Shown: positions 22,634 to 31,711 of the stretch, one piece after another | How the letters are laid out: each line of letters begins with the position of its first letter | Position numbering within the stretch: the first letter of the stretch is position 1 | DNA from: Methanomassiliicoccales archaeon | Lineage (GTDB): Archaea > Thermoplasmatota > Thermoplasmata > GCA-020350865 | Assembly (NCBI GenBank): GCA_020347705.1 | Contig: CP070739.1 | Coordinates: 2,541,158-2,578,823, forward strand | DNA length: 37,666 nucleotides | Direction of reading: 5' to 3' | Notes under the pieces: generated by a model | The model's input: the letters and a program-made list of their open reading frames with translations, nothing else | Told to the model about the DNA's origin: nothing | The model's database searches: none | Translations under genes and position numbers: made by a program

Positions 22634-22755
22634 AAATTTAGAATGATGGACCTGCCCGTGCTTCGGCTTAAGACAGGAGTAAATATAAACATAACCGAAG
22701 CGCTAAGGGCCATCATGTATTTAAGATAATAAAATTTGAATGATGGCCCTGCCCG
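22634..22755 (-). repeat. tRNA-Pro-linked ~97-bp module (inverted and direct copies of the tRNA 3' end around a conserved hairpin)
   Basis: 11-bp perfect IR 22706-22716 / 22740-22750; direct repeat 22634-22658 vs 22732-22755; hairpin 22658-22703. Confidence 0.75.
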
Positions 22756-22818
22756 AATTTGAATCGGAGTCACAGCGTCCCGAACGCCATAGGATTGACC
22801 AAACTACCCCACAGGGCC
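22744..22818 (-). tRNA. tRNA-Pro(CGG), CCA not encoded
   Basis: Cloverleaf GGCCCTG/CAGGGCC-A; D-loop AGTTTGGTCAA; anticodon loop TTCGGGA; T-loop TTCAAAT. Confidence 0.92.
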
Positions 22819-22950
22819 ATTTTTATGGTTGAATGAGATAATACCTTAAAATGATTGCTCTGCATCATATTCTACCCAAACATATGAAATATCAAGACAT
22901 GAGTACATTGCCAATGCTAATCATATATTAGTGTTATCTGAAAAACTTGT

Positions 22951-29633: not shown

Positions 29634-30521
29634 ATGGAACTCGAAATTTTAGAATTGACGGATACAAAAGCAAAGTTCATCGTCTCCGAAATATCACCTC
29701 CAGCTATCAATGCACTGAGAAGGACGTTGATTGCGGATGTCCCAAAGATGGCCATCGATAATGTGGAATTTCACCTTGGTCCCATCAGAAACGAGCACGG
29801 GAAGGAATATGAAAGTATCACTCCATTATTCGATGAGATCATTGCCCACAGACTTGGAATGGTTCCCATTCCCACTGATCTTGATTTATTCGTATTCAGA
29901 GATGATTGCGTTTGCAAAGGAGAGGGATGCCCGAATTGTACCATCATGTACTCCCTCAATAAAAAGGGCCCGTCAGAGGACGATAAGAAGGAAAATCTTA
30001 CCGTATATTCCGATGAATTGCAGCTTGTGGTCCAAAAGGTTGAAGGAGTTTCCGAGAAAAAATATGCTGAAAAGTTCCAAATCAATAAAAAAATACCTCT
30101 TGTTAGGTTGAACAAGAGCCAGGCATTATTACTATATGCCACAGCTGAATTGGGCAGGGGAAACGACCATGCAAAATGGCAGGTAGCACAGGCGGTGGGT
30201 TACCAGTATTATCCAATCATAAATATCGATAAAAAGAAATGTGACAGCGGTGGCTCATGTGTGGAAAGCTGCCCCAAAAATGTACTTGAGCAAAAGAAAA
30301 AGGAAATCATTGTTGCTAATCTGGAGAATTGTAATATGTGTGGAACTTGCGAAGAGGTGTGTTCCCTTGGGGCTGTCAAAGTTGATGGCGACGATTCAAA
30401 GTTCATTTTCCAATTCGAAACCGATGGGGCGCTCTCCGCAAAAGAGGCTATAACCCGGGCACTGGTCATTTTGGAGGATGAGTTCGAGGAATTGCGTGAT
30501 CTGGCAGGCAAACTAAAATAA
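29634..30521 (+). CDS. rpoD: DNA-directed RNA polymerase subunit D (Rpo3) with ferredoxin-like FeS domain
   Basis: NALRRTLIADVP, DEIIAHRLGMVP, HAKW, CVESCP...CNMCGTCEEVC, FETDGAL; canonical operon position. Confidence 0.96.
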   Translation: MELEILELTDTKAKFIVSEISPPAINALRRTLIADVPKMAIDNVEFHLGPIRNEHGKEYESITPLFDEIIAHRLGMVPIPTDLDLFVFRDDCVCKGEGCPNCTIMYSLNKKGPSEDDKKENLTVYSDELQLVVQKVEGVSEKKYAEKFQINKKIPLVRLNKSQALLLYATAELGRGNDHAKWQVAQAVGYQYYPIINIDKKKCDSGGSCVESCPKNVLEQKKKEIIVANLENCNMCGTCEEVCSLGAVKVDGDDSKFIFQFETDGALSAKEAITRALVILEDEFEELRDLAGKLK

Positions 30522-30632
30522 CCTCCACCTTTTTTTAATCCTCAGCAGGTTCTCGCATACGATATCGATTCATCTGCTTTTTTAAAAGACGGGCATCGTA
30601 AATTCTATCTGCTTTTAAGTGATACGTATTGC

Positions 30633-30691
30633 GCCACGATGAAGAAGAACGCTAATCTGAAAGATGATGAGTGATGGGCGATCTGAGTGGC
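30633..30691 (+). ncRNA. box C/D 2'-O-methylation guide sRNA
   Basis: Terminal stem GCCAC/GTGGC; box C ATGAAGA 30639-30645; 11-nt guide; D' CTGA 30657-30660; C' ATGATGA 30664-30670; 12-nt guide; D CTGA 30683-30686. Confidence 0.88.
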
Positions 30692-30784
30692 AACCTCAGG
30701 TTATTCAACGACCTTGACTAAGCGAGTCTCTCTTCCATATTACCGAAATTCATTAATACAATCTTATCGGTATACTCGCTGATA

Positions 30785-31711
30785 TTGATGGCAAGGCTAG
30801 AGGGCGTTGAATTTCTTTCTTTAGATAAAACCGAAGACCAACTCGTTTTAGTGGTATTCGCTTGCCTTATCATTTCCTTTTTTTTCGGCCTTCAGCCCGG
30901 AGGATTGTACGCCATTTTGTGGGCGGCCACAGGTCTGGCAGCCCTAATCTGCATATATTTCGCCTTTCCCCATATGTGGCAGTCCGGGCTGCTTTTATAT
31001 GCTAGCTACGGAATCTCTGCCTTCGGGGTGATTTTTATCGTCTTTTGGTATGACTTGGTGATGTTATTTGGGATTTCCATCCCCTTGTTGATCGGGTTTT
31101 TTTTTATTGCATCTGCATTTTATATAGCTTTCCACATCATTCAAAATATCAAGAAGGTTAGAGATGCGTCAGTAAAGAAAGATGGTTATCCTACCCTGGG
31201 TTTTTGGAGTATAGGGGTATTTTCCTTCGTCATTTTTTCGATTCTGTCCATCCTAGGTTGGGCATTATGGGCCGACTCGGGTGGAGGGGGGATTCGATTC
31301 TACCAAATCTTTGAGCCAGTGATCGCATTCCTGCTGGTTTATACTCTATGGCTTCCGGACAGAAATATCGACTGGAGCGGCGAAAAACTGCCAGAATCAA
31401 CGGCCGCGAAGTTCATTACCGATAAATCCAAGGCCATAAGGAAAAAGGTTGTAATGACGAAAAAGATCTGCCCCGAGTGTGGCTCGAAGTTAAGGATTGA
31501 GAAAAAGATATGTCCATCCTGCAACAACACCCAGAAATTCGGTTGGTGTGTGACTTCCGAAGCTTATGTCCTACCCTGTACCAAATGCGGGAGCATGTCC
31601 CTTTATGGGAAGGAAAAATGCAGCCAGTGCCAAAATCAACTCTTTGATAAAGTTGTATGCAGTGCCTGCCAAAAGGCATTTCCAATAAAGGAATGGATTG
31701 TTGAAACCTGA
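30785..31711 (+). CDS. membrane protein (about 6 TM) with C-terminal multi-CxxC zinc-ribbon domain
   Basis: Hydrophobic N-terminal two-thirds; CPEC, CPSC, CTKC, CSQC, CSAC. Confidence 0.8.
   Translation: MMARLEGVEFLSLDKTEDQLVLVVFACLIISFFFGLQPGGLYAILWAATGLAALICIYFAFPHMWQSGLLLYASYGISAFGVIFIVFWYDLVMLFGISIPLLIGFFFIASAFYIAFHIIQNIKKVRDASVKKDGYPTLGFWSIGVFSFVIFSILSILGWALWADSGGGGIRFYQIFEPVIAFLLVYTLWLPDRNIDWSGEKLPESTAAKFITDKSKAIRKKVVMTKKICPECGSKLRIEKKICPSCNNTQKFGWCVTSEAYVLPCTKCGSMSLYGKEKCSQCQNQLFDKVVCSACQKAFPIKEWIVET

Follow-up and report, generated by a model that had tools for sequence, protein, structure and literature searches.

Nucleotide C1402 of 16S ribosomal RNA (rRNA; E. coli numbering) touches the P-site codon, and its ribose is methylated by a protein enzyme in bacteria, whereas eukaryotes use guide RNAs for this modification. 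The methylated residue, Cm1402, has been measured in N. equitans, according to the part of Seistrup et al. (PMC5389701) considered here, and in the table of a 2024 review (PMC11542601) P. abyssi Cm1369 shares a row with E. coli Cm1402, yeast Cm1639, human Cm1703 and Arabidopsis Cm1645. Four archaeal small RNAs (sRNAs) with a common guide core are found in the rows of Dennis et al. 2015 (PMC4644070) that we considered: Mma sR106, Mka sR114, Sac sR122 and Iho sR11, from Methanococcus maripaludis, Methanopyrus kandleri, Sulfolobus acidocaldarius and Ignicoccus hospitalis, respectively. Here we analyse a 37,666-nucleotide (nt) stretch of contig CP070739.1 from a Methanomassiliicoccales archaeon (the window), in which an earlier note had proposed a box C/D guide RNA for C1402. 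Positions 30633-30691 on the plus strand are an archaeal box C/D sRNA gene of about 59 nt. Its D guide probably directs 2'-O-methylation of 16S C1402; comparing guide and rRNA sequences, we put the probability of this at roughly 0.7. In all four published sRNAs, within the rows considered, the spacing between the core GAUGGGCG and box D or D' equals that in the window, and the G of GGGCG falls at N+5, the fifth base upstream of the box, as it does in the window.

Architecture and conservation of the sRNA gene

The RNA has the arrangement C-D'-C'-D and is closed by a 5-base-pair (bp) terminal stem (Table 1). Box C lies near the 5' end, with one departure from the consensus, and box D near the 3' end. 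The internal boxes D' and C' delimit guide spacers of 11 and 12 nt; the spacer range of 10-12 nt and the N+5 rule are given in PMC7994747. The stem directly adjoins box D and is separated by three bases from the first G-A of box C, which, judged from the sequence, is the usual kink-turn layout. Box C could also be read as ACGAUGA, followed by a 14-nt spacer, but this register was rejected: it would use up the terminal stem, and the homologues disagree with it. No open reading frame (ORF) of at least 40 codons overlaps the element on either strand. The earlier note was right about this architecture, the stem and every coordinate, including the placement of G30678 five bases upstream of box D, and reading of the ORFs and protein domains bears out its placement of the RNA in the intergenic gap after the genes for S13, S4, S11 and RpoD.

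A DNA search of 60 relatives recovered the sRNA in 20, including 4/4 of the genus; a 21st match, in genome G005, lies outside the sRNA. Within the genus the sRNA is 92-97% identical, compared with 75-78% for RpoD, and forms a conserved block in a variable spacer. The order S11, RpoD, sRNA, membrane protein, RPA-like protein is kept in 5/5 genus genomes. The 16 other relatives that carry the sRNA lack both RpoD and the downstream protein within 1.5 kb of it. The sRNA therefore moves independently of these neighbours, as a gene of its own. Of 401 genomes sampled from the class, 312 carry a degenerate guide motif, with N+1 to N+3 free and with Y at N+8 and R at N+7 allowed (206/259 of good quality; 84/105 genera). 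The motif is nearly always present once per genome, and a reversed-pattern control gave 1 match. The 401-genome counts include the unpublished genomes G097 and G301, which enter no other result. A scan of named genome records for the C'-guide-D motif returned at least 121 loci, among whose record titles are Methanobrevibacter, Methanobacterium, Thermoplasmata, Archaeoglobus, Thermococcus, Altiarchaeota, Iainarchaeum, Poseidoniaceae and Hydrothermarchaeales.

The terminal stem is kept by compensatory changes. We extracted and aligned 98 distinct sequences with the guide in the D position and counted six terminal pairs, of which 88.3% of cells are paired, compared with 48.7% after shuffling; none of 500 shuffles (0/500) reaches 88.3%. 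Both sides have changed in 220 cells (83 in shuffles), the covariation score reaches 0.88 (0.18 in shuffles), and sliding the partner strand by 1-3 columns leaves 25-39% paired. Each of the four inner pairs is at least 97% paired, using three to six pair types. Most rows of the alignment (78/98) were collected by a pattern that fixes the D guide, so the alignment gives no independent evidence on guide conservation; the stem columns lie outside that pattern.

Sequence-model searches point to the same class. In an Rfam E-value scan of 321 bases, 19/19 matches are to C/D families, all on the plus strand and over 30631-30693. The top match is snoPyro_CD (RF00095) at 31.1 bits (E 7.6e-5; gathering score 45), and sR1 (RF01152) scores the RNA at 19.2 bits, also against a gathering score of 45. 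In the Rfam check suggested in the earlier note, the sub-threshold matches are C/D and plus-strand throughout, and no family reaches its gathering score. For this reason we file the RNA under the class only, and not under snoPyro_CD or sR1. The best snoPyro_CD match genome-wide is the 30633-30691 locus; a second C/D-like match (22 bits, E 0.04) has no D' and D boxes and was rejected. A loose pattern for the full architecture, run over both strands of the 3.2-Mb genome, matched at three places, one of them the sRNA locus and the other two overlapping each other inside a coding repeat, and it matched nowhere in each of five first-order Markov simulations.

Two further observations concern the host genome (G000). 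At G000:C1:3135662-3135731, on the minus strand, a coding-like short tandem repeat mimics the C/D pattern twice; its units consist of ACC, CCC or GCC followed by TGACGATGAAGA, and it is a trap for motif-based sRNA finders. Aragorn identifies 17 tRNA genes, no rRNA genes are present, and no other convincing C/D sRNA was found in the genome, a bin that is 81% complete and whose counts are not true absence.

The proteins that box C/D sRNAs work with are all encoded, as the earlier note had asked of the genome: fibrillarin (270.5 bits), Nop5 (177 bits) and two members of the L7Ae family (94.6 and 66 bits), each above its Pfam cut-off. Fibrillarin (G000:C1:2460408-2461046) and Nop5 (G000:C1:476768-477223) lie on different assembly pieces. 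The two genes are usually adjacent in archaea, and their separation may reflect only the fragmented bin. Taken together, the four boxes, the 11- and 12-nt spacers, the covarying stem, the C/D-only Rfam matches and the encoded proteins support the box C/D guide RNA identity first proposed from the window.

Complementarity of the D guide to 16S and 23S rRNA

The host assembly is a metagenome bin in which runs of N link 374 pieces, and pairing was tested on 16S rRNA from the same genus, full length in G003 and as a 3' fragment in G004. Both contain ACACCGCCCGUCAAACC; E. coli 1400-1408 reads CGCCCGUCA, and position 1340 of the G003 16S aligns to E. coli C1402. The D guide pairs with CGCCCGUCA over 9 bp, from N+3 to N+11, comprising 8 Watson-Crick pairs and one G-U at N+8, just as the earlier note described. 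A tenth pair is not formed because the same-genus 16S has A at 1409; at the other end, N+1 (U) faces A1398. The same-genus 16S is thus a stable RNA complementary to the guide, with the predicted target nucleotide opposite N+5.

As this pairing alone is not significant, the assignment to C1402 rests on comparison. Opposite G1405, at N+8, 93 of the 150 guide variants listed carry U, giving a G-U pair, and 57 carry C, giving a Watson-Crick pair; every variant seen preserves the register with N+5 on C1402. Family f19 provides a matched change in guide and target. Its genus g27 has the guide GACAGGCG and the 16S sequence CGCCUGUCA, both in 3/3 genomes. Its sister genus g90 has the guide GACGGGCG in 3/3 and the 16S sequence CGCCCGUCA in the 1/3 with the region assembled. 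The 16S change C1404U is accompanied by G-to-A in the guide in g27, and neither change is present in g90. Such a double change is expected only if guide and 16S would pair in the cell. In family f16, GGGCAGU replaces GGGCGAU; on the family's own standard 16S (G019), the mismatch shifts by one base and no pair is lost. These comparisons mark C1402 as the conserved predicted target of the sRNA family. It is the guide variants and the f19 double change, rather than pairing strength, that support the earlier placement of N+5 (G30678) opposite C1402.

Several observations weigh against methylation of C1402 by this RNA. Neither 16S nor 23S rRNA is present in the host's own assembly, and the demonstration of pairing is confined to relatives. 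Of 1000 shuffled guides, 462 do equally well on G003 rRNA, and with full 23S added, 313/600 reach the 16S score and 108/600 reach 9.5. The compensatory change in f19 is one event, in another family. The conserved A at N+2 is a mismatch with C1399 in 16S and would pair with U2555 in 23S, where the host guide also finds a 10-bp partner. On the side of the RNA itself, box C has A instead of U at position 5 of RUGAUGA; this variant, AUGAAGA, is common to 5/5 genus genomes, and other families have AUGAUGA or GUGAUGA. Rfam gave no match in the window at gathering thresholds, and the predicted fold is no more stable than its shuffles (z -0.55), which is unremarkable for a protein-shaped RNA.

The most serious competitor is a site in 23S rRNA. 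For guides of the host type (U at N+8, A at N+2), the same RNA in its ribonucleoprotein (RNP) could have 23S C2558, in helix 92, as its main or an additional target, which we consider unlikely. The host guide pairs with UCGCCCAUUA in 23S over 10 bp (N+2 to N+11; 9 Watson-Crick and one G-U), a longer duplex than that with 16S, and by alignment N+5 in this duplex is E. coli C2558, two bases past the A loop. The 10-bp match is found in G005, from the same order as the host, and in G044 and G041, and shortens to 9 bp in G017; the site reads UUCGCCCAUUAA in 11/12 class genomes examined and UACGCCCAUUAA in G017. Pairing here would account both for the conservation of A at N+2 and for the retention of U at N+8. 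M. kandleri sR64 is a precedent: its D guide, AUAGUGGGCGAG, is nearly the same as that in the window, yet in the rows of Dennis et al. (PMC4644070) considered here its predicted target is 23S C2832 in helix 92, not 16S. E. coli C2556 is C2830 in that numbering, from which C2832 should correspond to E. coli C2558. The behaviour of the guide across the class favours 16S, however. In 8/8 of the examined genomes whose guide has C at N+8, a C-A mismatch cuts the 23S pairing to 6-7 contiguous pairs, whereas the same 8/8 keep 16S pairing at 8 Watson-Crick pairs. The f19 double change follows 16S and not 23S, and the GGGCAGU guide of f16 keeps the host-level number of 16S pairs while losing 23S pairs. 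In addition, 108/600 shuffled guides reach the 23S score, and the region is not assembled in host-genus 23S. A 23S site is thus a possibility for U-type guides, the host's included. There is also a minor chance that one 12-nt guide serves two ribosomal centres, the decoding centre and the A-loop side. The host-type UGAUGGGCGA is wobble-compatible with both CGCCCGUCA in 16S (C1402) and UCGCCCAUUA in 23S (C2558): U at N+8 pairs with G1405 or 23S A2561, G at N+10 pairs with C1407 or 23S U2563, and for the conserved A at N+2 the sole partner is 23S U2555. If true, a dual target would explain why many lineages retain a weak G-U in the 16S duplex. Lineages with N+8 changed to C would then have given up the 23S site, and genus g90, with C at N+8, would subsequently have changed N+2 to G, extending its 16S pairing.

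Other explanations leave methylation of C1402 aside. The RNA could be bound by the C/D proteins and yet act as an rRNA-folding chaperone or an orphan guide, without methylating C1402. The pairing is short (9 bp), the H. volcanii list of 16S modifications is without Cm1402 (Grosjean et al., PMC2584109), C1402 of I. hospitalis is less than 50% methylated in the part of PMC5389701 considered, and sR106 of M. maripaludis, the closest published homologue, is entered as 'NP NP' in the rows of Dennis et al. (PMC4644070) considered. We nevertheless regard this as improbable, given that the register on C1402 is kept in every variant seen, that Cm1402 has been measured in N. equitans (PMC5389701, in the part considered) and that a fixed distance from box D is needless for chaperoning alone. 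It is less probable still that the element acts in cis, as a kink-turn that binds protein and belongs to the rpoD 3' untranslated region or to the 5' leader of the downstream membrane-protein gene. Its position, 112 nt past rpoD and 94 nt short of the next ORF and fixed in 5/5 genus genomes, would suit such a role, but a T7 run separates it from rpoD, the 16 other relatives have the sRNA without either neighbour within 1.5 kb, and a conserved guide would be senseless in a purely cis element. Finally, the comparative data refute a chance arrangement of boxes in non-functional spacer DNA, a reading to which the missing Rfam match at gathering score and the ordinary fold stability might have lent some weight: the five simulated genomes hold no match, the element is a conserved island with a covarying stem, and the guide motif occurs in 312/401 class genomes against 1 control match. 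Methylation of 16S C1402 remains the reading we prefer.

Flanking signals, the D' guide and a proposed mechanism

The sRNA is preceded by genes for S13, S4, S11 and an Rpb3-type RpoD with a 4Fe-4S insert, the last ending at 30521; the next ORF downstream encodes a membrane protein with weak zinc-ribbon matches. The T7 run just after the rpoD stop makes it probable that the sRNA has its own transcription start. The best-kept upstream block in an alignment of five genomes, GTAAATTCTATCT, is centred about 27-29 nt before the stem, which is the spacing of an archaeal TATA box, and may be the promoter. The TTTTAAG at 30613-30619, described as TATA-like in the earlier note, is present, but it falls just 14-20 nt ahead of the stem, and its conservation in the genus is poor; its role as a TATA box is doubtful.

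Table 1 Features of the sRNA gene and its surroundings (window coordinates)
Feature	Position	Strand	Remark
Terminator-like T7 run, just after the rpoD stop	30530-30536	+	
Conserved block GTAAATTCTATCT, possible promoter	30598-30610	+	
5' terminal-stem strand GCCAC	30633-30637	+	pairs with 30687-30691
Single bulge base G, between 5' stem strand and box C	30638	+	
Box C AUGAAGA	30639-30645	+	aligned as box C by Rfam models
D' guide AGAACGCUAAU, 11 nt	30646-30656	+	N+5 is C30652
Box D' CUGA	30657-30660	+	at least 90% conserved across the alignment
Linker AAG, between box D' and box C'		+	
Box C' AUGAUGA	30664-30670	+	UGAUGA invariant (n=98 sequences)
D guide GUGAUGGGCGAU, 12 nt	30671-30682	+	N+5 is G30678
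Box D CUGA	30683-30686	+	sequence and alignment
3' terminal-stem strand GUGGC	30687-30691	+	covariation count
tRNA-Pro(CGG) gene	22742-22819	-	within the window

Just before the membrane/zinc-ribbon ORF, at 30743-30781 on the plus strand, a block of about 40 nt, ACCGAAATTCATTAATACAATCTTATCGGTATACTCG, is almost invariant in 5/5 genus genomes and better kept than the surrounding proteins. Within the block are an imperfect inverted repeat (ACCGAAA ... TTATCGGT) and, about 26 nt ahead of the ATG at 30788, an AT-rich stretch; the block may combine a leaderless-mRNA promoter with a regulator binding site.

Within the genus, the D' guide is invariant from N+5 to N+11 (AGAACGC), has either U or C at N+4 and varies from N+1 to N+3; G008 and locus L055 share the core GAACGC with the genus. 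The best 16S match is UAAGGCGUUCU at G003 1010-1020, with 8 bp from N+4 to N+11 and N+5 on G1014, which aligns to E. coli 1082; at N+4, U and C can each pair with the opposite G. In G008, from another family, the D' guide GGAACGCGUUG pairs at 10/11 positions with the genome's own 16S at the same site, and GGAACGCCUUG, the D' guide of L055, would pair at 11/11, against the G003 sequence rather than L055 16S. Shuffled guides do equally well in 369/1000 cases, which weighs against this target, and we consider 16S position 1082 a tentative candidate, with the odds somewhat against it. When the guide was compared with four full 23S sequences of class relatives, no match was consistent across the genus guides. 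Among the 17 tRNAs, the best match of the D' guide is to the anticodon stem/loop of tRNA-Pro(CGG) over 8 bp, placing N+5 at about position 29, where guides do not usually act. As this match does not surpass the 16S candidate, it was set aside, and the complementarity is probably due to chance. The earlier statement that the D' guide has no assignable target holds to the extent that no strong one emerged, and is modified by the weak candidate at 1082.

Transcription of the gene, assembly of the RNP and the methylation itself are inferred. The 5-bp terminal stem would close one kink-turn, formed by boxes C and D, and boxes C' and D' would form a second. As in the class generally, L7Ae would bind both kink-turns, after which Nop5 and fibrillarin would join. 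The D guide would then pair with CGCCCGUCA in 16S and place C1402 in the active site of fibrillarin for 2'-O-methylation. The lineage-specific D' guide may direct a second methylation at 16S 1082, or it may be decaying.

Comparison with known guide RNAs

Of the guide-motif loci tested from Thermococcus and Archaeoglobus, 5/5 pass the Rfam family sR1 (RF01152), a C/D sRNA of Thermococcales, at 49.1-54.5 bits against 45; these loci have the same guide, but in the D' position. In Archaeoglobi and Thermococci (L033, L045, L058, L065, L088, L100 and others) the guide follows box C, in the D' position, and so has changed place within the RNA during evolution.

The partner guides form patterns of their own. 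In Methanobacteriales (L034, L039, L046 and about 40 others) the partner guide in the D' position is without exception ACCCUAUGAGCU. CUCAUA occurs in the complement of this guide, N+5 falling on the C of CAU, and its target looks like the wobble C34 of tRNA-Met, the nucleotide guided by haloarchaeal sR-tMet (named in PMC4033218). The Hydrothermarchaeales locus L057 has the same two guides with their positions swapped. Many Thermoplasmata loci (L021, L035, L051, L068, L085 and L091 among them) have another conserved, lineage-specific D' guide, ending in AGAACCAG before box D'.

The 312/401 Thermoplasmata genomes and the at least 121 loci whose record titles name Methanobacteriales, Archaeoglobi, Thermococci, Altiarchaeota and others suggest that the C1402 guide is among the most widely kept archaeal guide RNAs, retained even in genomes where few other guide RNAs are detectable. 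Our search of the literature on C1402 and its guides, Gaspin et al. 2000 and Omer et al. 2000 aside, found no paper that calls this guide widespread in Euryarchaeota. For the host genome, the gain is an RNA gene absent from its annotation, together with a likely modification of the rRNA. It is of use in annotation, as Rfam thresholds miss the guide RNA. Perhaps of interest to specialists are the breadth of conservation, the f19 double change, the look-alike site in 23S and a concrete candidate target for M. maripaludis sR106.

Of the published RNAs, sR106 resembles the window RNA in being dual-box, with a D-position guide and the same core, GAUGGGCGA. It differs in its D' guide, which is unrelated, and both of its guides are marked 'NP', no predicted target, in the rows of Dennis et al. 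(PMC4644070) considered here. According to the same rows, M. maripaludis is a mesophile with few C/D sRNAs (7 listed), of which sR106 has a read count of 255,854, the highest among the rows considered. I. hospitalis sR11, M. kandleri sR114 and S. acidocaldarius sR122 share the core GAUGGGCG with the window RNA; in contrast to it, they have the guide in D', where it reads GGGCGG and also pairs with C1399, and carry other partner guides (PMC4644070, rows considered). Eukaryotic 18S guides such as Arabidopsis U43 (PMC11542601) serve the same ribosomal nucleotide and are also of the C/D type, whereas bacterial RsmI and RsmH act on that nucleotide as protein-only enzymes. The picture of guide-RNA action is unchanged, with no new mechanism. 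Guides for C1402 have already been published, as with Ignicoccus sR11 and Pyrococcus Cm1369, and the window RNA is an ordinary new member of this group.

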